Of a stretch of 64,000 nt of DNA, positions 551 through 43,400 are shown piece after piece. Below the pieces are notes generated by a model. That model was given only the letters and a program-made list of their open reading frames with translations. It made no database searches and was not told the origin of the DNA. Source of the stretch: Lytechinus pictus (lineage: Eukaryota). Each line of letters starts with the position of its first letter. Positions within the stretch are counted from its first letter, which is position 1. Both the position numbers and the translations under genes were made by a program. The stretch is from assembly GCF_037042905.1 (NCBI RefSeq), contig NC_087251.1:34412001-34476000 (forward strand). The letters run 5' to 3'.

Positions 551-1411
551 GGCGGAAATATTATGTCCACTTTACCCGAGTCGCCGCTCAGAGCTAAAAA
601 CCAGAGGAGGGGGGGGGGGGGGTAAGGGGGTAACCATAAGTCATTGAGACTGGGATCTAATTAGCTTTATTCTTACAAACAAAAGTTACTGTGTCTCATG
701 TTGCATAAAGAAACATTGTGAGCGCTTGGTAAACATTTGTTTGAGCTATTTCATTTATGTAGACTTGAAATCGACGATTTTAAGCACTTTTTGTAACCAT
801 GAGTAAACTTTCTAACGAGAGCGCGAGTGAGAGCTGACTAAAACTGTTAATACACTAACATTAAGAGGGACAGTGTAAGGATTGTTTCAGTGACTTCTGA
901 ATAGGATGCATACCTCACCAATAAAAATTCGACCCCGTAAACCAACAGAAGGGAACATAGGCCTATGCCTATTATGATCCCTGAAATAAAGTCTTGAAAA
1001 TGGTGATTGAAATTGTAAGTCTTTGGGGGGTATACCATGGCTTTTAAATTTCAGTCTTGAAAATGTGCTTATATCAGCAGCAACATCTCATTGTATGTTG
1101 TGATGGGCAGGTATGAACTTCAGTGGGGGTAGGGGCGATCGTCCCCTATATGCTGTTGGACAAAATAATAAAGAAGAAAAGATAAAAGGAAACGGAAGAA
1201 AGGAACTCTATGATAAAGAAAACAAATGTCTTGCTTTGGTGAATTTTATAATTCAGCTGTATAGAAAACAAAGTCACCTGTAGGCGCTATAGCTCTGTGG
1301 GGGGGGGGGGGTTCAGATTCAGGTGACCCAGGCTCGATTTCCACTTGGTGCGCTAGTGCCCTTTGGTAAGGCATTAATCCTCGGTCCCTTGGAGAGGACT
1401 TTAAACCGTCG

Positions 1412-2043
1412 CACAGTGGGCCAGGAGAGGGCAAAAGTGCGCCAAAACTGGTTTTTGGTCATGAAACAAATTTTGTTTTTTTCATGTTCTAAGCGAAGAT
1501 GAGAACCTGTAGAATGTCTCCATACAATATTGCTCCATTAAATTGATTATTAGTTGCCCATTTTTATTCAATATTACCGGAAAATGACTCTTTACGGCTA
1601 CCGCATATGTAAATGACACGTTTTAGATATTTCACTGTATTGACCAAACGGATTGCTCAATTTATTTCTAATTCACGGTGCTTTTTGATGAATAATTTTT
1701 CTAAGTGATCAAAGATTTTCAAGATAAAATTACAATTCCTTCAGAGGAAATTTAGGACGAAACCATTTGACATTGGGGGTTTTAGCAATTTTTTTTTTCA
1801 CGAGCATTTCTTTTACAAATTGCTGCCGATTGCTGCGCTGTAGATACCATGACGGTCTTTGTTATAGTTCATGCTTTACATTGATACTAAATTTAGCTGC
1901 ATATACGTGCATTTTCTGGAGATATAACCAATTTTCCAACCACATGTTCGCCGTATTTATCACAAAAATCGTTCCAAGTTAGTGTCCCATTATGCGCGTG
2001 CCGAACGTTGCGGTGACATTAAACAAACTCCTCGTCGCGTGCT

Positions 2044-2085
<42 letters not shown>

Positions 2086-3411
2086 TCTGGATCAAGTGTC
2101 TGGCTCTTGTGACTGGTGTCTGTCTAAAATATTTTCATTAAACATACGTAAAGGCAAGCTTTCATTTCCAATTCCACTAACTATAATAATACATGTAACA
2201 CAACTTCATATTGATGCCAAACTGTTCCATCCCGTGTTCCATATCTGATATGCTGTCATCATGAGAAGATTATTTATTAAGGTAAGATTCCCGGGTAAGA
2301 TTATATTTGTTTTGTTGTTCATAAACCAAGTAGGGGCTACTGTATATCTTTATAACACACATGACTACGGATGTGATAGGTCTCACGCAGTTTTCTGACA
2401 AAATATGAAAATGTGTATAGGACAGAGATGGGATATACGTGGGCTCTACATGTATAAGTTGCATTATCATTATTAGTATTTATCCCCACAAAAGGGTTTG
2501 TAACTTCACATACACGTATGAATTCGTTTATCTTTTGGCTTATTCTAAATTTGCTATAATTGTTAGTATCGATCAAGAAGGAAGTGTATATTATAATTTC
2601 AAGGATTGTTTGGTTTATGACTCTCACTGACTTTATATGTATTCCACAGACTAATGGTAACAGGTGACATTGTGATTAGTAGCAAGTTTTTAAGTGTGCA
2701 ACAATCACAGCCTCTTCCCCCTGATGTTCCAAAGTATGCTAAAAGATCCTCTCACCAAAGACATAATAGTTGGTGAGATAGCAGAGAGAGACTCTGATTT
2801 GGAATAACTTTGTATACGTCGTTCCTGGTGAAATAGGTAGGCCTTGTAGGGCCTTGTACTGATTAACCTGCAGAGGACCCGGCCTCTATTATTTATCACT
2901 GGAATCATTATTTTAAAGATTTCACTGTCCACGTCTGGTATCAATCCATTTTAATTCATGTAGGTGTGGTTAATTATTGTACCCAGGGAATGAAAATACT
3001 CCTTTGCATTTTTTTGGGTACAATTTCACTTTGAATTTTACAATTCCGGATTCATGGTAGGGCGCCCTCTTTAAGCGATACTCAAGTAACCAATTGAATT
3101 ATTTGTACCCCGAGCACAGACTTTTCATGTTTGTTTGCCTGTTTGCTGTTTGCTAATATGCTTAATTATTGCTCAAATTTCTCTAAAACCAGTTTCTGAA
3201 AATTTGAAACTTATTGTAGAATTAGAAACATGTAATTTCTTCTCAAATGTTAACAGCCAATCAGAAAACAGTATTTTAACGACGTCATCAATATTTGAAA
3301 AAACTTTTATTGAATTCTACGGGTGAAATTACCCCTATCTACCAAATTTAATCGTACAAATGTGTGAATAATGGGTTTTGGCGCACTTTGGGTTCATTCT
3401 GGCCCACTGTG
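1412..3411. mobile_element. Non-autonomous Transib-type (RAG-related) DNA transposon, 2,000 bp, with RSS-like TIRs
   Basis: Left end CACAGTGGGCCAG-GAGAGGGCA-AAAGTGCGCCAAAAC (1412-1448). Right end, reverse-complemented, CACAGTGGGCCAG-AATGAACCC-AAAGTGCGCCAAAAC (3375-3411). Perfect 5-bp TSD CGTCG at 1407-1411 and 3412-3416. CAC termini with a 5-bp GC-rich TSD are characteristic of Transib. No transposase ORF seen. Confidence 0.85.
2046..2075 (+). repeat. (GA)n microsatellite inside the Transib element
   Basis: Direct reading. Confidence 0.9.
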
Positions 3412-4554
3412 CGTCGGTCCTATGGTTGCTTGCTTACAAGCATTCATGCTTTCTTAGCAATCAGGTAAAAAAAATCACCGCCACCCATCTTTTTATTTTT
3501 ACCCCTATAATAAAAACCCTCTGGTGCTGCCTCTGTTCTGTTTATCATGATTATGAATTATGAACCATCCTCGGACAATTCTCACATCTTTGTCTAAAAA
3601 CAAAAAAGAAAAGAAACTGAAAAGGAAAATCGAAATGGATAAATCCGGGGGATAAATACAAAATTGAAACTTTGAAGTTATCGTCCATGTCAGTTTACAA
3701 CCTGTATTGTGTTTACTGATATTATATCAACAATCCCTTGTCATAAAAATATGTTGACATGTAATTTCTTTTGAGAATTTCATATTTGTGTCTGATATCC
3801 TGTCCCTAACTCAGAGGAGTGACTTATGAGTGACTTATAAGTGGCTACATGGAACAACCACAACCGGAACTACAGCAATTTCTGTAATTCAACTTCTCTA
3901 GAAGAAATCAAGAGAATGCTCGATCATGATGCTGTATTTGTGATTTTCATACCAGTTTCGGATGAAATATGACCCCATTCCGTGCCCTTTCCGTGGCGTC
4001 TCTCCTCCACGGCAACAGGTTGCTTCGTTGTTACTCTTCAAAAACACGCGTCTCTGAAAATTACTTTCAATCTTCTAGTGTAGCAAATATGCGCGATATT
4101 TTATGCCTTTATTGAAAATAAAAACATATGATTTTATTTAATTAATTATAAAAGATATAGTGTAGGGTTTTACTTGACAATGAATGGATATAATGCCCTA
4201 AAAGTGCATTTATAAAACCAATATTAGGGTGGTGCTCGCACAATGGAACAGCCCAAACGTTACACATAGGTCTGGTATGGAGTGCACGGCGGCGTCAGGT
4301 GGATGAAGAAAACCATCAATTTCAAAATCTTCCCTACCGTCAGGTACCGTACTCCATACAAACAGTCTGCGTATACGGTGCGGTAACTGGGGGTAATACT
4401 CGGAACTCTTGTTTAAGGTGGTGGTATCGACAACAGCCATATCCTTTTAAATTGAAATTATATTTAACAGCCAAAGGAAAAACATTCTTACAGTGAGCTG
4501 AAAATCTGCAACGTTTCGGATCATTACTGTTGATTGGTTGCTTTTAAACATAAC

Positions 4555-4668
4555 ATGAGTGAACGTTGTTTTCAAGCGATGACAGCTATTTGGGCACTTA
4601 TCGTGTTGGTGATGCTCCAGCGAGCCGAAGCTCTGGCGTCGGGTGGACAGTCGGGCGCCGCTGGTTCG
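4555..4668 (+). CDS. EYS: Exon 1 (signal peptide) of an EYS-like secreted/extracellular-matrix protein: MSERCFQAMTAIWALIVLVMLQRAEALASGGQSGAAGS
   Basis: ATG at 4555 (alternative in-frame ATG at 4579), hydrophobic core AIWALIVLVML followed by an A-x-A cleavage-like motif, then donor TCG|GTAAGT at 4669 (phase 0), in frame with exon 2. Confidence 0.8.
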
Positions 4669-5939
4669 GTAAGTAACACTACCTACATACATATATTTTG
4701 TAATTCATTACTGTTATCATTTTTAAGAGGCAATGCAAGCAATGCAAAATACAATTTTTTATTTACAACAAGTTTGAAAGATTATCATAGTTTTATTTCC
4801 ATTGTTTACATGGCTGTACAGTATGCGAAAATTATTTCTGGAGGGGAGGGGGAGGGGCAACTGGCAAGCCAATTTTGGAAGAAACTTGAAAGTGAGGGAT
4901 CGAAGCGACGGGGCTTGCCACGGGGACACTTTTGCATTTTGCATTTCCTATCATGAAATTAAGGATTTTGTGCACACTTGAATTTGTGAATTTTTTTTTT
5001 AGTAAAAAAAATGTACCTATGTTTTCAAAATTTGCCCCCTGTGCCCCCCCTTCATACAGTTATGCGTGTCTATTTAGACTTTAATTATTTCTATCGCAGG
5101 AACTGATTGTGATGTTCATGTATGATGCTGGTCTGAAAGTCTTCTAGTTCCTTATCAATTATCAAATCATGATGTCCTGTCCTTCACTAAAATATCCAGG
5201 TCAAATGATTAAAAGTAAAAACAGCATGAGTTGGAATATAGTAATGATTTACGTGTACGCCATTTATTTTTTGATGTGATGTTGCAAATTACGTTGTAAT
5301 TGGAGATGTGGAACACGAGGGCAAATTAAGCCTTAGGCCTATATTTTGTGGGTGGTGTCATTTGTTAATAATAGAATAGCACACACTTTTCTTGCACAAA
5401 AGAATGATCTATTTTCTTGCCCCTTTTCCTCTTCCTGAACTCTTCTTCTTTATTTTCATTTGAAAACATCAAAATGTGGGGGGGGGGGGGAATGGTCACC
5501 CCTAACATAATCAGATATGGTGCCTCACTGGTTAATCTGTAAGGTTGGCAGAAGGGCAGGAATGCTTTTATTATTCATACTTTGCACACACGATTCAAAC
5601 AAAGATAACAAACCGGGATGCCCTATTTCTTTTACTGAAAAATTACCCATGAGGAAAAATAAAATCAATGAATCTGTAAGTTGAATCTATTATATCATAG
5701 CCCAGGTCTGTGTTCAGGTACCGGGTACTTAATGTTTAAAAGATTTATTTTATTTTTTCCTGTAAAATTCAATGCGATTGTCCACGAACATGAGGTGTGT
5801 ATAGTTTAACAATTTGAGCGTTTCTGTCTCTAACGTAAAGTAGACTCGACCTGAATAAGAGGTTCACTTCTCAATGACAGAAAATTTCCGTCTAATCTCT
5901 GGTTCTGGCCCTGATTGGCAATGGAAAGATGGAAATGTT

Positions 5940-7712: not shown

Positions 7713-8335
7713 AGGGATAGTCAGGCCGGAGATATTTATATCTCAATAAAAAGAGTAAAAATCACAAAGCAAAATGCTGAAAATTTGATCAAAATCGGAT
7801 AACAAATAACAAAGTTATTGAATTTAAAAGATTTGCATTATTCTGGTGAAACAGTTCTAGGCATGTCTTCATGAATATTCATTAGGTGGGCTGATGATGT
7901 AATATACCCTCTTGTTCTTTTGTATTTTATTATATGAAATAAGTTTTATTCAAAAAAATTATACCAAGAACTAAAACAATTGGATTGACAACTGATTATT
8001 AAAGTGCATTTGTTATTCATTGCTGCAACTTATTTCATCATAATGGAGACACATCATTTACACATACATGTACAAAAAAATGAAACAATTATGATTTCAT
8101 ATAATAACATAAGAAAAAGGAAAGTGGGGATAAGACATCACCAGCCCAACTAATGAATATTCATGATGTGCATATACATGTAACTGTTTTCACAAAATAT
8201 TGATAAACTTTAAAATTCAATAACTTTGTTATTTGTTATCCGATTTTGATGAAATTTTCAGCATTTCAGCTTTATAAATGTTACTCTATTTGTTTACATA
8301 AAAAGATAAAAATATTATCAGCTTATCTCATCCCT
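7713..8335. mobile_element. TTAA-flanked palindromic MITE (Kolobok-like); decayed relatives near 6520-6610 and 55735-56220
   Basis: TTAA|AGGGAT...ATCCCT|TTAA. Long imperfect inverted arms (AATGCTGAAAATTTGATCAAAATCGGATAACAAATAACAAAGTTATTGAATTT and its reverse complement). Confidence 0.75.
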
Positions 8336-10407: not shown

Positions 10408-10972
10408 GTGAGTGGAGTGTAGCAGAAGCTACATTTTACTGGTTACACTGGTCAGCAGTTGGTATTAAAGCCATTATGGAAGTGGATACTGGTAAATCTT
10501 TCTAAAAGGTCTTGTAATTTTGACTTGGTACTCTTTATTGCAAAAGAACTAATCTAGCACCTATCACAATCATGTGAATTATACCTCCTTATAGAGTGCA
10601 ATATAGCCTTTTCTGGGTGAACTGTGCATCTTTTTTAATAAACACTCTCACTCCTAAGAGAGGTAAAATCCACTCTCAAAAGGTGTAAATTACATGTACA
10701 CGCCAAAAGGATTTCATTGTAATACTGTAAGAACAATTATATGATTTATATCTACAATTGTATGTACATAAATTTGAAAAAGATGTTCCAATTCCATTCC
10801 ATTCTATATAGCTACATGTACATGTAGAGGGGGGGGGGGGGTCATGTCTTAGTATTTAGTGGAAATTGAGCTCGTAATTCTGACAGTATTCTGAAATGTT
10901 GCAATCTTGGATTTTGGTCTAGAGCAAAAAGAGGCGCCGACATCGAACTACCAAAGATATGATCGTGTTTAA

Positions 10973-11557
10973 AGGAGAATGAAACTCTTGGAGCAAGTTA
11001 GCTTTTGTGAAAGCAGTAAAATCAAAGAATAAGATCAACAAAAGTTTGAGTAAAATAGGACTAGCAATAGAAGAGTTATGAGCATTTGAGTGTCGAGATC
11101 ACTAATGCTATGGAGATCCTCCCATTGGCAATGCGACCAAGATCTATGATGTCACAGATGAACAACTCTCCCCTTTTGGACACTGAAAATATACCCCAAA
11201 ACATCTCTTTTTGCTCATTCTAATCATATGACAAACGATTCATCAATGATATAATGTTGTGAAACCTCTGTACTTGTCCTCTCATATAAAGAGAACACCT
11301 CACCTTGTGATAGACTCTATAAAAGTGAGAATATAAGTGAAATAAGTACTAAAGTAATGAGGGAGTTGTACGTGTGTGACATCACAGATCTTGGTCGCAT
11401 TGCCAATGGGAAGATCTACATGGCATTAGTGATCTCAATATTCAAATGCTCATAACTTTCTTATTATTCATTCAATCTTCCTCAAACTTTCAACAATATG
11501 TTTCTTTGATTTTTCTCTTTGATATGAATTCAGCTGGTTTCAAGGTTTCATTCTCCT
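10973..11557. mobile_element. TTAA-flanked palindromic MITE (Kolobok-like)
   Basis: TTAA|AGGAGAATGAAAC...GTTTCATTCTCCT|TTAA. Internal inverted arms CCCATTGGCAATGCGACCAAGATCT and AGATCTTGGTCGCATTGCCAATGGG. Confidence 0.8.
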
Positions 11558-11727
11558 TTAAAGAATGGAGACCTCTTTTCTTAGTTTTATTGTCAGCATC
11601 TGCTGCTGTGATACTCAATTTAATCAATTTGCTTCTCCCTCCTTATCTCAAGCTAACTGCTGGTAGTTGTTTAATGAGGGGATGTAATTTGAGTTTGATT
11701 GATGATTGAGCAATAGAGGTACAAGAG

Positions 11728-15019: not shown

Positions 15020-17033
15020 GAAAGTTTATGGATCTGACTCATGAAACTTGGACATAAGAGTAATCAAGTATCACTGAACATCCTGTGCGAGTTTCAGGTC
15101 ACATGATCAAGGTCAAAGGTCATGTAAGGTCAATGAACTTTGGCCATGTTTTTTTTTTTTTTGGAATTACCATCATATCTCTGTAAGTGTATTGGTCTAG
15201 ATCATAAAACGTGGACATAAGAGTAACCAAGTATCACTGAACATCTTGTGCGAGTTTCAGGTCACATGACTAAGGTCAAAGGTCAATGGATATTGGCCAT
15301 GTTGGGGGTATTTGTTGAATTACCATCATAACTCTGTAAGTATATTGGTCTAGTTCATAAAACTTGGACATAAGAGTTGTAAAGTATCACTGAATATCTC
15401 CTGTGAGTTTCAGGTCACATGACTAAAGTCAAAGGTCATTTAAGGTCATTGAACTTTGGCCATTTTAGAGGTAATTAGTAGATTGCTGTCATAACTTTCA
15501 AAGTTTATAGATATAGTGTATAAAATGTGGATATAGGGGTTATCACGAATTCGTAAGTTCTGACACGTTGTTGCAATGAACTACAAGGAAGGCATCTGTG
15601 AACTATATGCTCCCATTTATTAGATTATGTCTAATAACATTGTAGTGTTCAGTTATTCAACAACTGTGTGAGATTCCTGTAAATAAACAATAAAGGATAA
15701 ACATATCTTAGTAAAGAAAGCATTTCTGTACATGTATCATCATTCTTTCCCAAAATATTCATTAAAGACATAAGGAATAATCAATCATGCCTTTTAACCA
15801 TTTTGCTGTCAAAGGTAGAATTTAACTGAAAGTAATAAGAGAGAATTAATGAAACTTTCCTAATTCAGTCTTAATATCATTTTTCCCAATTCCAACAAAT
15901 CTACCCTATATGAAAAGATATCATAATTATCTAGCAACAAACATCTGTGAAAAATATATTTGTCTTCAAAATAACAAAAGGTATAGATTTAATCATTTAA
16001 ATCTCTAAAACTGTAACAGAAAATTCCTATTGTTTTGTTTCCCTTCTGAATCAATAAAATTCACTTGAAAAACAATTATCAATATTAGTGGTGATTGAAT
16101 TATTATTTCACGAATTTTGTGTAAGCAATGTAATTTTAAAGACATCAGTTCTAAGTAACAAGAATTAACTGTAAGACAACATTAACTATCAATACTACTG
16201 AAAGATAAACAATAACGTCATGAAACCCTGCTATAACACGTGTAAACTCCGGGCGGCGGATCACACCGAAATTCCTGGAAATATCAATCCGCGAGCCAAC
16301 TCGCACGTAAGTTTGTGACCATACCACATCAAATGAGTAGGAAAAATAGTGCATAACTAAACTGGCTTGTAAATATGTTAAACAACAATAAATCCTATAA
16401 ACTTAGATTTAAGAAAATACTCTAAATTCGTAGAGTCATAATCATGAGTACATCTTAAGAATTGCGTGTCACAAGACAACATTTTGAAGATATCGACTGC
16501 AGAGAACTTCCGCGTGTATTCAAGATACGCAAGGTCCTTCGTTGGGAAGTGTGATGGATTTTCAAAGTATAATCTAAACCTAAATCTCTTCAACAAGGTA
16601 TTTAAAAGAGGAATACAAAGATACTAATAAACTACACATTCTCATTAAATCTACAAAAGTTTTTGAGCAAATCTCAACATACCTTGCATAGCATAAAGCG
16701 TGAAAACTAAGGAAATCTTGTGATCAATCGAATGAAGCAAACTGCTGTGATTTTACGAACTTGTGTTGTTCTAACTAGTCTACATACAAGGACACGCGCA
16801 AGCGCACAATTTAAAAATACACATATACTTCAACATGTCATGACAGGGGTAATCAAGTATCCCTGACAAGTTTTAGGTCACATTATCAAGGTCAAATGTC
16901 AATGAACGTAGTATTGTATCATATGAATGGTGTTTTTTGTGAATAATTATTAAAAGGTTGTTTTTAAATTCAGCACTGCTGCTATATTGAATCGCATGAT
17001 GCAGGTGAGACCGCCAGAGGCATTCCACTTGTT
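15020..17033. mobile_element. Helentron/HINE-like element with an internal tandem array (unit about 150-170 bp), interrupted by a nested insertion
   Basis: About four units of AAACTTGGACATAAGAG..AAGTATCACTGAA..GAGTTTCAGGTCACATGA..AAGGTCAAAGGTCA. Terminus ...CCGCCAGAGGCATTCCACTTGTT. Classification is inferred from the architecture (internal tandem repeats, no TIR/TSD). Confidence 0.55.
15541..16845. mobile_element. 1.3-kb nested insertion with 5-bp TSD GGGGT (solo-LTR-like, or a TG..CA DNA element)
   Basis: GGGGT at 15536-15540 and 16846-16850. Ends are TATCACGA.. and ..TCATGACA (TG..CA with one mismatch). Excision restores a unit of the host tandem array (GGATATAGGGGTAATCAAGTATC). Confidence 0.65.
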
Positions 17034-34805: not shown

Positions 34806-35844
34806 CATGTCAGCTCTACAGTACATTACTATACTTGAGGGTAATCAAAGGAGACTGTTTGCAAATCCAGGGGGAAATGGCAGGTTGGATTTCTGTAGAT
34901 GGATTTTTAATCTCCTTAATCTCATGGGAGCTCATAAAACATACATGTACATGTTTTATAGAATCATATCTGACTAATTATTCATTGGCGTATTTCATGA
35001 TTTGATTTGACATGTGATTATATTAAAGCTCTACCACAGAATTGAAAGACTAAGCGCAGATGGATACTTAAGAGCTGCCTTCCATGAATACATGTATATG
35101 AAAATATGACAAGGCACTGGAAGCTCAAAAGGGCATCCAACTACATGTAGTATGGAGATTGGGCTGAAAAGAGAAAAAAGATATTAAAAAAAGATCTGTG
35201 AAAGATTTAAAGGACATAGAAATACACAAATTATATATATAGTAATGCTTACACAAGCACTAAACACACTTGTCCCTACTTCTATTTGCAAGTTTGAGAC
35301 TGATTGCTTGATATTATACTCTTTAATACTTTGTTTATTATTTGCTTGAATAAATGAATGTTGTGTGTCTGTGCTATAGCGGAGGTTCGTAATAAACCTT
35401 CTTGGGATTTTCGGTAGCAAGTGTGTGACAGAGTTTTGAAAAAAACTCAGTCAATACAAATTTTGATGGAAATTTTAATGCTGGAGATACCAAATACTAC
35501 TTTTGTCTTCCAAAGGTTGGTAACTCTGCCAGTGGGAACGTATATCCCCTTTTAGCTGGGAGAACGGCAATGGCTGGCTTAATCCAAGGTGAAAGAAATG
35601 AAGGATAGTAAATAGTGGAAATAATTAATGAGGACCCAAAATGGGTGGAGAATTGTAATAATCCTTTTAGAGGCTGCCACTGAACAAACAGGAGTAGTTC
35701 CAAGGTTTCATCCTCTAAATATAACATTAATTGCACCTGGAAAGGACATACATGTAAGTGGAAATTGTTATGGGATGCAAAATAGATTTTTCTCTGTTTA
35801 CAACATAACGTGGAGCTTCATAATGTTATGGTCATGTGAAAAGA

Positions 35845-35990
35845 TATGATTTTGTTAAGGTACACTAAATGAAATTTTGTAAAACAATATTGTACTACTT
35901 GGTGGGAGGAGTTTCATATATATGATTTTATCAAAGTACACTAAATGAAATTTTGTAAAACAATATTGTATTACTCGGTGGGAGGAGTTT
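35845..35990 (+). repeat. Tandem duplication, 2 x about 75 bp
   Basis: GTACACTAAATGAAATTTTGTAAAACAATATTGTA..ACT.GGTGGGAGGAGTTT occurs twice. Confidence 0.85.
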
Positions 35991-38900: not shown

Positions 38901-39911
38901 ATCATCTGATGATGATGATGATCACTTGATCAGGTTACGTTGCAGTGTGTTTCAAGTATGTTCATCATTTTGCTTATAGAGTGCTTTTACAAGTTGCATT
39001 ATAATGTGGATGGTAGAATTCAGAAAGTTTGAGCTCAGTGGGATATTTACGATAGCAGCATTTCTTATATTTTTAAGAAGGGATTTTAACATTTTGTGTT
39101 TTCTTATTTCAATGTGTGCTCACCCATTGATGCTATGAAATTTACCTCTTGTGTAAATACAACAATTTGCTAGCAAAATCTGATTACATTTTCTTAAATG
39201 ATATGGATTAATTTTACAAAATGTTTTCAAATTAAATTTAGGAGGCTGGGCATCAGAACTTTCCTCTTTCTCTTTAAAAACATCGATCAAGCAGTGTCAG
39301 AATACACTTAGGTGCTTGATCTAGCAATAAATGATAAACGACACCACTTCTCGAACATTCACCGGAAGAAGAACGGGCAAATTAAATTTTGAAAATGTAA
39401 ACTTTGAAAAGGGACAGATATATATGTAAAGTATGCTCACTCATACATGACTTAATGGATCAATTATATATATGTTATTTTAGTTCAGTGCTTTTTTGTG
39501 GGAAATCTGTGTCACTTTTGATCTGGGGTGAATTTAGGGGGAACTCATTTTTGTGTTGGCATAAAGTATCAGAAGAAGAGGATAAAATCAATTCCTATTG
39601 CATACTGATATGCAATTATAGGCCTACATTGCTTAATTAGCACATACGTTTAATCCCAGCAGTCGTTAGTTTGACTAATATGAGACTAAATAGACTGTAA
39701 ATGATAAATGTGAAGCATTAGAATAATGTGAGTGATAATGTGATAATCATGTGAAGCATTAGCGTAATGGATGAAAAAATATTGATTGTCTTGATGCTTT
39801 CATAAATGTACAAGCATATATCAACTTTATTAGCATTTGGGTAAAAACAAATTATTGTTTGTTAACCTAATAGGAGACTGAATATGGTGTTAAGTAGTGA
39901 AGCATCCAAAT

Positions 39912-40415
39912 AAGGGGACAAAAAGCCACTATTCGTCTTGTTGCTTGCTTGAAGTTGCACTCATGTACAAGCGTATACATACATAGATTTGTTCAATATT
40001 AACAGTTGGGTAAAAAATTCCAAGCAGTAGTTGGTTAATGAGAACTATATGGATTGTAGATGGCATAAAGTTGTGAAACATCTCAAAAAGCCATTATTCG
40101 TCTTGTTGCTTGCTTGAAGTTGCACTCATGTACAAGCGTATACATACATAGATTTGTTAAATATTAACAGTTGGGTAAAACCAAGCCGTTATTGGTTAAT
40201 GAGAACTGTATGGATTGTAGATGTCATAAAGTTGTGAAACATCTGAAGAAGGGGACAAAAAGCCATTATTCGTCTTCTTGCTTTCTTGAAGTTGCACTCA
40301 TGTACAAGCTTATACATAGATTTGTTTAATATTAACAGTTGGGTAAAAACCAAGCCATTGTTGGTTAATGAGAACTGTATGGATTGTAGATGGCATAAAG
40401 TTGTGAAGCATCTGA
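39912..40415 (+). repeat. Tandem triplication, 3 x about 165-170 bp
   Basis: CAAAAAGCCA.TATTCGTCTT..GAAGTTGCACTCATGTACAAGC..GGTTAATGAGAACT..CATAAAGTTGTGAA.CATCT occurs three times. Confidence 0.9.
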
Positions 40416-43400
40416 ATACGAGCACCTGTATCCACACCAAACCAGTCATCCATCTTTTTGCAGGGTGATGAAGAGCTCTTCTCGGTGTGCCATTTTAGAT
40501 CCTAGCCAAGTGTTAAACGTGACAAAGAACACGCAGAGGTGCTGGAAATACATCTCCGCGTCCCTTTGGAGATTATACGTGAGAAAAACTTTAGATCGAT
40601 TCGATGAGGAGCTGATAGAAACGACCGAGTATGCATATCTGAAACATGCATGTCCATTTATTCCTCGATGAAACTCGTACCTAAAATGTGGTTTTCATCC
40701 GATGCAAATGAAAATCTTTGAATTGTGTTACATGCGTGACAGATGTTTAAATTTCGCTGCTGGCAAAATGTTTTTGTGTTCAAATTTCTAGATTTACCAT
40801 TTTACATTGAATCCTGGTGGTGCCACTCCATATATGAACATGTGATTCTTTTTTAGAAATTAAATGATTCTTCCTTTATCATGCTTTGAAGAAAAGTCAT
40901 TCACAGTATGTGTGATGCTTGTTACATGTATGTAAAAAGCCCTTGTTAATATTGATAATAATAGCTAGATATATGTGTTTTTTCAGACGATATAAGGCCC
41001 AACTCTTTACCTTTTATTGAATTAGCTCAAGCTGCTATTTTATCAGCAGTGCTGTGTGCATTCAAGGAATGCTGCTAGATTATTTTCAAGAACTAACATT
41101 TTGTAAAAAAAAAAATTAACAAAACATGTTCGTATCAACACCTCTATATAAATGCATAGATATTCAGATACTTAATGTAGATATGGAAGTATTATACGTC
41201 ATCATCAATGTCTTTTGCCTTACACACCGCAACTAAAAATGAATATACAAATGTCCATTTAACTGTAGTTATGTCAGGCCAGTTGTAATGGATCATTTCT
41301 GTATGGTGTGTGGGATTGAGTATCCCATTTTTATGCCACAAATGCCAAAGTAGGACAAATCCCCAACAAACTAGGGAGCTCAGAGCTTTGAAATGGGAAT
41401 TGATATGTACAAGTTAAGCATCTGCTTGAATAACTAATCCCTCATCCACATGATCAGGATTAATGTCAATTCTACTTTCATTTGCCTCATTATGCCCAAA
41501 ACAGTTTAATCTATCGTGGCAAATTGAAAATATATTGACCATTTCATGATGTGCTCACAGAGGAAATCATTTCATTTGGAGGCAATGAGAGCTTGAGTTG
41601 GTATCGCTCGATGCTGATTATGTCAACAAAACTTGAAAGGGTGGTTTATAGCGCCAGGGAATATTCCAGTGGATTTGTCTTTGAACCAGCCGAATGGAAA
41701 AGAGAGTTGCATTAATAGGAATAATATTTATGATGAAGAGATTGCCCATTAGTCTAATGAAGCATGCTACTGAATGCAGACATTAGCTTCAATCCTGAAA
41801 AATAAATTCTATCTGGGATAAATAAAACTGGAGATGGCTTGCATGTGAGAGAGGCCACATTTAATCGATAGTGGCTAATTAATTCAGGGAAATTTCTCTG
41901 ATTAATTGATGTGACTGCTTTGTTTTTGTCAACACTTTTATGTGAAGAGATTAGATACTGTACCTTTTAAATGTTAGTATCAGTCAGATTGTTTTTGTCA
42001 AATTGAATGTTAAGTGAAATCACTTTTGATTACAGTTTATGAAGGTTATGACCAAGAGTGCTGGCATGGACTTCTTGTTTGGGAGTATGTAGTTGAATCT
42101 CTAACAGATGTTAAGACCCCCCCCCCAAAAAAAAAAAAGAGTAAAAATTAAAAGAAAAAAATACTTGAGCATTGATTTTTCTTTTTCATATTGAGCTGTT
42201 TTGTTATGCAATGACCCAAAGCACTATGAAGATTAGAAAATGAAAATAAATACCCATTCATGAAAAAGATCGGCTTTGAAAAAAAATGAATTGTGAGGTT
42301 TCTATCATAAAGTAGGGCCTATTTATATTTTCATAACCCATATACGTACAACTCATCTCCAAACCAATCTATCAAGATACAGATGCTGTTTTGGAAGTTC
42401 TCCAGTAACATTAACTGTGGTTACAGAAATGATGGTTTCTTAAAATGGTTTTTGAGCATAGTAAATGGTCCATTACCAATCTTGAAAAGGTAATTTGTAC
42501 GTCGATATGCAAATGCCTTTAGGCGAAGAACAAGACTGAAGAAGAAGATGAATTACAGGGTATACACATGTAATTAAGATGATGGGGAAAATATTATGAG
42601 AAATATAAATCAGAACTGAGATAAAGGGAACATGAAGCAAGGTCTTTCTGATCACAACAATCCCTACTAAAGCTGTCAATTTGTCATTAAGTTGGAATGA
42701 ATTGCTCTGGTGCCAGCCTTATCAAGATATTTTATGACAAAAAAGAGAGGCAAGGATGAAAAGATAAGTTTGAAAAAAAAAAGTTAACGGTTACAGTGTA
42801 CTCTGTTGTGTGGATGAGAGATGAATCATGCATTTGTATGTGAAGATAGTGCAAAATACTTTTTTAACATCCACAGTTTTATAAAAATCATTACTTGTGC
42901 GAACGTTATTCCGTAACTAAGATTCCGTATCATAAAAAAGTAAAGTTATTGATTGTGTTTCATTTCCTGTTTCAAATTCAATATATATTTTAGGTGAAAT
43001 ATTTAGGATGAAGTTCTTTTTACGTGTAATTCAGTATTTAAAAATAATTTATCAACCATAGACATAACAAATAAACCAAACACTGTTGATACATCAATTT
43101 CGAGTGATTTTTTTAAATGTGAAATCAGTGGAAACCTACTTAAGGTTTTTTTTATTGTGTAAATGACTGCCTGAATGATATTCTATAGTTCTGAATTTGC
43201 ATATTAATATATCTGCTTTTCCCCTTTAAATGTTGTTTGGTCTGTAGGATAATGTGCAGAGGATCTCTTTGTGTGTGAACATACTGGCTTAATTAAGGCT
43301 TCACATTAATTGAGTATTTTGAGCTAAGTAGGAGAGCTCATGGAGGTTGCTATAAATGTCAATGTAATTTAATGTTTCATAGGTATGGCCATTATTGGCG

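Follow-up and report, generated by a model that had tools for sequence, protein, structure and literature searches.

The locus raises the question of which enzyme moved the 2,000 bp of DNA that now interrupt a short host repeat near the left edge of the window (the whole 64,000-nucleotide stretch analysed here), and of how far the likeness of their termini to the recombination signal sequences (RSS) of V(D)J recombination should guide the answer. The initial annotation had offered a Transib or a RAG-like transposase. We consider it highly probable that this repeated, gene-less 2-kb element, with its 37-bp inverted ends and its 5-bp duplication in a SINE-like repeat, is a non-autonomous Transib transposon that was mobilised by a Transib transposase encoded elsewhere.

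Structure of the element and its ends

The element occupies positions 1412..3411 (2,000 bp, no strand assigned, without a detected coding trace). It is bounded by two inverted ends of 37 bp, the left one at 1412..1448 on the plus strand and the right one at 3375..3411 on the minus strand, and both open with the exact V(D)J heptamer CACAGTG. Read inward, the two ends have the same bases throughout positions 1-13 and 23-37, whereas only 2/9 of positions 14-22 agree. The left end is thus divided into box I (1412-1424), a variable stretch of 9 bp (1425-1433) and box II (1434-1448), while the corresponding parts of the right end are located at 3411-3399, 3398-3390 and 3389-3375. Both the heptamers and the arrangement of conserved box, variable spacer and conserved box had been described in the initial annotation, and they are borne out by the sequence.

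A spacer of 22 nt leads to the 9-mer GCCAAAACC in the right end (3382-3374, minus strand), which agrees with the RSS nonamer at 7/9 positions, and to GCCAAAACT in the left end (1441-1449, plus strand), which agrees at 6/9; on recomputation these values were the same as those first reported. With a spacer of 23 the scores are 7/9 on the right and 5/9 on the left, and spacers of 11-13 give 5/9 at most. The adenines at nonamer positions 5 and 6 are present in both ends at either spacer length, 22 or 23. As the best nonamer match falls at spacer 22-23 on either side, the ends are symmetric and 23-RSS-like, as had been proposed, and do not form a 12/23 pair. Taken alone, the nonamer likeness is modest: when the best of three adjacent offsets is scored, 7/9 is reached at 0.8% and 6/9 at 4.6% of the window positions. 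Moreover, 13 of the 22 “spacer” bases of an RSS-style reading are conserved between the two ends, and therefore the ends are built as 13 + 9 + 15 rather than as heptamer, free spacer and nonamer.

Within the 64-kb window the ends of the element constitute the sole 13-bp perfect inverted repeat that has an exact 5-bp direct repeat at its flanks. One of 30 dinucleotide-matched sequences also gave one such 13-bp/5-bp pair, in a control that did not require the second box of 15 bp. There is no second copy of the element in the window, where the terminal 13-mer matches only the two ends (up to 2 mismatches allowed) and a BLAST search with the element returned microsatellite matches only. The element itself contains a (GA)n microsatellite followed by a G run (2046..2086, plus strand).

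A repeated, non-coding interior

Contigs of four public sequencing runs (X1, X2, X7 and X15), each of which contained less than half of the window's words and may represent other individuals or a sister species, were aligned to positions 800-4100 at 87% likeness. All 17 bins of the interior are covered in all four runs. The median summed depth of these bins is 11,465 in X2 and 5,328 in X7, where the unique right flank reaches about 84 and about 47, respectively; summed depth is not a copy number, and as a rough guide these values suggest a copy number on the order of one hundred or below. With a low depth of 2-24 in X1, the interior is highly repeated in three of the four runs. Other insertion sites are also visible. 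In X1 the right end (a loose end behind 3413) is followed by CGACG and new sequence, and record 22 of X2 diverges from the window after 3417. A further X1 contig has the right end from 3376 in common with the element and continues into a different interior, which indicates that other families use the same end boxes.

A six-frame translation of the element, with X at stops, matched no Pfam family in 6/6 frames at E up to 1, and a search of the PDB found no transposase or RAG chain in 6/6 frames at E up to 10. The Pfam result is a weak negative, because some Transib transposases give no InterProScan match, as stated in a 2026 preprint. The PDB matches that did appear in two frames, to antibody heavy chains (E 0.74 or worse) and to FtsH (E 1.9), were rejected as chance. 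This lack of a coding trace in six frames fits the earlier proposal of a transposase encoded elsewhere.

The initial annotation had also read the insertion as a fairly recent mobilisation. The longest pieces of X1 and X15 are about 95-98% like the element, those of X2 and X7 down to about 89-92%, and at 33 of the 35 difference rows listed inside the element (beside 160 more) another letter is in the majority in X2, X7 and X15. In X2, 40 of about 640 letters differ in the unique right flank, and the divergence of the element therefore does not exceed that of its flank. “Fairly recent” is plausible given the 95-98% likeness to the best long pieces of other runs, and to this extent the claim stands, if loosely. 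The element differs by a few per cent from other copies, a divergence that gives no sign of present activity. A dating of the insertion was rejected as imprecise, as the runs may not be of the same species.

Comparison with published Transib families

Transib transposons insert into GC-rich targets with 5-bp duplications. Their ends consist of a heptamer, a spacer of about 23 bp and a nonamer-like block, and in most families both ends resemble RSS23 (Kapitonov and Jurka 2005, PMC1131882). The closest likeness in that paper is to Transib-N1_SP from Strongylocentrotus purpuratus (Fig S4g), whose end positions 1-13 and 23-36 are identical to those of our element at 27/27 positions, for both ends, in a comparison by eye. 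Like the element, Transib-N1_SP is gene-less; it is also short, and it inserts into 5-bp targets of the CGNCG type, to which the CGTCG found here belongs. Among its 11 published copies, CGNCG is present on 10/11 left and 10/11 right flanks, and 8 copies have perfect duplications (by eye, Fig S4g).

On the other hand, the element is 2.0 kb long, compared to about 0.56-0.99 kb for the Transib-N1_SP copies according to the figure coordinates. The 9-bp spacer differs between the ends here, whereas in Transib-N1_SP it is a perfect inverted copy, giving perfect ends of 36 bp, and the spacers here agree with it at 3/9 positions on the left and 4/9 on the right. The element therefore has the end boxes of the family, and neither its spacer nor its length of about 0.9 kb. 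Because length and spacers differ, the 2-kb element is probably a sister family of Transib-N1_SP, a placement that refers to ends, length and target, the interior being omitted from Fig S4g. The 2-kb family, or the ends of Transib1_SP described below, may already be included in Figure 4 or the tables of the 2005 paper, or in Repbase.

An autonomous relative is described from the same species: Transib1_SP has a length of 4,132 bp, encodes a transposase of 676 aa, which the copy here does not, and makes a CGGCG duplication of the same CGNCG type as CGTCG (PMC1131882). The ends of Transib-N1_SP are tied to this transposase by the classification in the paper and by the target type, not by sequence.

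In Drosophila, TransibN1_DP and TransibN1_DM (PMC1131882, Fig S4d and S4f) have symmetric ends with GCCAAAA at positions 30-36, as here, although positions 4-29 largely differ and most of their targets resemble CANTG instead of CGNCG. TransibN1_DP and the right end here have the same 9-mer at positions 30-38 (by eye, PMC1131882), so that the nonamer-like block is a trait of Transib that is both old and already published. With the vertebrate 23-RSS, as described in PMC1131882 and PMC4840297, the ends share the exact heptamer, a nonamer-like 9-mer at 22-23 bp and the critical A5 and A6; they differ from it in lacking a 12/23 pair, in the conservation of 13/22 “spacer” bases, in having no gene segments and in belonging to a transposon insertion. 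Since 2005, therefore, nearly the same end sequence, the target type and the RSS likeness have been on record for sea urchin, and the find is an ordinary one.

Could the element instead be a non-autonomous derivative of a RAG-like (RAGL / ProtoRAG / TransibSU) transposon, moved by a RAG1L-RAG2L complex? Elements of this group also start with CAC, make GC-rich duplications of 5 bp, are found in echinoderms and have non-autonomous forms (PMC7204232, PMC10629977, PMC4411706). However, the accounts in these papers and in PMC8355894 set RAGL ends apart by an A-rich block after the heptamer, and in our element positions 8-10 are GGC, where the protostome RAGL consensus has AAA (PMC7204232) and RAGL-A has its adenine-rich TR2 (PMC10629977). 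The ends of RAGL-A differ by 10 bp in length, whereas those here are symmetric in length and match a family that was filed as Transib in the 2005 paper (PMC1131882). RAGL elements carry RAG1L and RAG2L; the six-frame Pfam and PDB searches gave no trace of either gene between the ends. We regard a RAGL derivative as very improbable, and of the two origins first suggested only Transib is upheld, by the ends, the 5-bp duplication and the target, the RAG-like origin being disfavoured by the match of the ends to a canonical Transib family and by GGC in place of AAA.

Target site duplication and the interrupted repeat

The element is flanked by CGTCG on either side (left copy 1407..1411, right copy 3412..3416, both plus strand) and splits a repeat whose 5' half is located at 1283..1411 (plus strand, start approximate) and whose 3' half is located at 3412..3474 (plus strand, end at about 3472-3474). 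We take the stretches 1290-1300 and 1331-1342 in the 5' half to be A-box-like and B-box-like, respectively. In the contig alignment no other bins come near the summed depth of those with 1244-1465, which include the 5' half, and 3353-3574. Behind 3472-3474 the contigs of X2, X7 and X15 leave the window as loose ends with varied A/T-rich tails (23 to 90 contigs per row). The host repeat is SINE-like and measures about 190 bp without the insertion. In the window, Rfam reported no family and ARAGORN no tRNA gene. The MetaSINE paper includes sea urchin SINEs (PMC4824008), and two of its supplements contain no match to the host repeat.

Two contigs of X2 and two of X7, and none of X1 or X15, join position 1406 directly to 3412. 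This joint skips exactly 2,005 bases, with 5 letters that fit on either side. In addition, 77, 74, 14 and 1 contigs of X2, X7, X15 and X1, respectively, have loose ends before 3412 and resemble the left flank of the window up to 1406, and the host repeat in them has a single CGTCG. Given the single CGTCG of the empty repeat and the 2,005 bases left out at the joint, the target duplication is 5 bp and not the 2 bp of a CACTA-type element, a length that is established for this copy only. The initial annotation was thus right to describe a perfect 5-bp duplication of CGTCG and an insertion that splits a SINE so that the empty site can be reconstructed. The joint contigs have 27 letters on their short side, inside the SINE, and may derive from any SINE copy; the empty form is therefore that of the host repeat and is not assignable to this locus. 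Gaps in the coverage of the flanks in X1, X7 and X15 were given no evidential weight. The target is GC-rich (4/5 G or C in CGTCG, in a window of 31-41% GC), and CGNCG occurs 32 times in the 64 kb.

These contigs also weigh on a second alternative, a CACTA/EnSpm- or Chapaev-type element whose 2- to 4-bp duplication mimics one of 5 bp; the initial annotation had named an association of the ends with a non-Transib transposase, such as CACTA/Chapaev, as a finding that would speak against its reading. The flanks end and begin with CG, so that the window alone fits a 2-bp duplication, and CACTA/EnSpm and Chapaev elements make duplications of 2-4 bp according to the 2026 preprint. Against this stand the single CGTCG of the empty repeat and the joint that skips 2,005 bases; a joint that skips 2,002 is not found among the 15 of 136 joints listed, and the ends match Transib-N1_SP. 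A duplication of 2 to 4 bp is largely refuted, and we give an origin of this type even less credence than a RAGL derivative.

Least credible of all is the idea that the ends act as functional recombination signals for host RAG-like proteins in a programmed rearrangement near a gene. In its favour, exact heptamers and nonamer-like boxes are present at both ends, a candidate signal-peptide exon is found some 1.1 kb downstream of the element, and sea urchin RAG1L together with mouse RAG2 cuts mouse signals (PMC4840297). Against it, transposition is indicated by the duplication, by the SINE being split and by the large number of copies; both ends are 23-like, and no link was found between the element and the putative exon. 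In the experiments described in PMC4840297, moreover, no recombination was obtained when sea urchin RAG1L was combined with its own RAG2L, and a 23/23 pair was a poor substrate for Hztransib.

Two of the 11 published Transib-N1_SP copies have one flank that resembles the SINE target (window 1392-1421) reversed (right flank of Contig23311 and left flank of Contig29183; by eye, PMC1131882 Fig S4g). The CGTCG of the SINE may be a recurrent landing site. The SINE copy in the window lacks, at 1382-1383, a few bases that are present in most copies of the runs (loose ends, 62 and 77 contigs), and it contains a long G run at 1299-1312.

Relatives in metagenome contigs

The box pattern matched two metagenome contigs, L001 and L002 (1.5 and 1.8 kb), with one end each, and nothing in viral contigs or in prokaryote genomes. 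The conservation of the boxes in these contigs was demanded by the search pattern and is not counted as evidence. We count for Transib-type kinship that the left subterminal region of the element (1449..1950, plus strand) is common to both contigs: the identity of their left ends is 78% across the first 131-145 bases and about 58% when a longer alignment is taken. Their spacers agree with the left spacer of the window at 6/9 positions and with the right spacer at 3/9 and 2/9. The flank of L002 is of the CGNCG type; that of L001, CGGCC, is not, which speaks against the Transib reading. The 12 frames of the two contigs contain no Pfam family, and no transposase was found at either locus. The likeness of L001 to L002 stops at 405. 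The Transib-type left end of L001 contains, at 406-1252, another, nested element, whose inverted ends measure 38 bp (97%) and whose interior has palindromic repeats.

Proposed mechanism and implications

Membership of the element in Transib is likely, judged by its ends, its duplication and its target. The 2026 preprint argues, against this, that the length of the duplication and the sequence of the ends are both variable within Transib and that transposase homology should take precedence over them. The inverted ends are bound by Transib transposases, which cut at CAC via nick and hairpin, as described for Hztransib (PMC4840297). By analogy, a Transib transposase from another locus most likely bound both ends in trans, cut at CAC with the same nick-hairpin chemistry and inserted them into a CGTCG target with a stagger of 5 bases, the repair of which doubled the target. 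The enzyme was probably a relative of Transib1_SP. It would favour palindromic CGNCG targets, which are presumably scarce in the genome and carried by every copy of the SINE.

The natural variation of the spacer provides a footprint that is small but useful. Positions 14-22 vary across four ends and the published one, while both boxes are kept in two ends and in the published family. The kept boxes probably mark the bases read by the transposase, which, to judge from conservation, would read boxes I and II and ignore positions 14-22. As it stands, the find adds little: the sea urchin-type lineage of Transib, known since 2005, gains one non-autonomous family of 2 kb. An intact cognate transposase, if found, would provide a deuterostome Transib for comparison with RAG, and the find would likewise gain in weight if the 21-bp internal repeat described below turned out to be functional.

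An internal repeat within the ends

In each end, the terminal 13-mer recurs in degenerate form and in direct orientation 21 bp further inward, in the inner box (1433-1445 on the left, 3390-3378 on the right). Positions 22-34 agree with the terminal 13-mer at 10/13 positions in the right end and at 9/13 in the left end, in L001 and in L002. Shuffles of bases 14-50 reach these scores with P values of 0.00075 (right end), 0.031 (left end), and 0.023 and 0.012 (the two metagenome loci), in a test that followed the observation and whose ends are not independent. At the same offset, the Drosophila TransibN1_DP end gives 6/13 only (by eye). We treat the internal repeat, a pattern in the letters of these ends, as a weak lead. 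That the nonamer-like box is the tail of a duplicated terminal motif, displaced by 21 bp or two helical turns, appears unlikely. If it were true, the plan of heptamer, spacer and nonamer would have begun as a tandem duplication of one transposase-binding site, the sea urchin lineage would keep a snapshot of that stage, and, given a live cognate transposase, the origin of the nonamer could be examined experimentally in a deuterostome.

Surroundings of the element

A possible first exon is located at 4555-4670 on the plus strand (frame 4534-4956); it starts with a hydrophobic stretch that resembles a signal peptide, a GT donor comes after it, and it has no Pfam match. No neighbouring gene or transposase relic was detected in the window, with 0 Pfam families in the 148 of 336 stop-to-stop frames of at least 52 aa that were scanned, a set confined to frames outside the element, not of low complexity and within the first 34.2 kb. 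Upstream of the element, an inverted repeat of 45 bp (375-549, 84% complementary, arms 85 bp apart) is MITE-like. Two long inverted repeats of about 200 bp and 79-80% identity at 7732-8307 and 10968-11562 are probably other non-autonomous DNA elements. Tandem arrays are present at 15039-15438, 39892-40416 and 35844-35990, with periods of 153, 165 and 76 bp, respectively.
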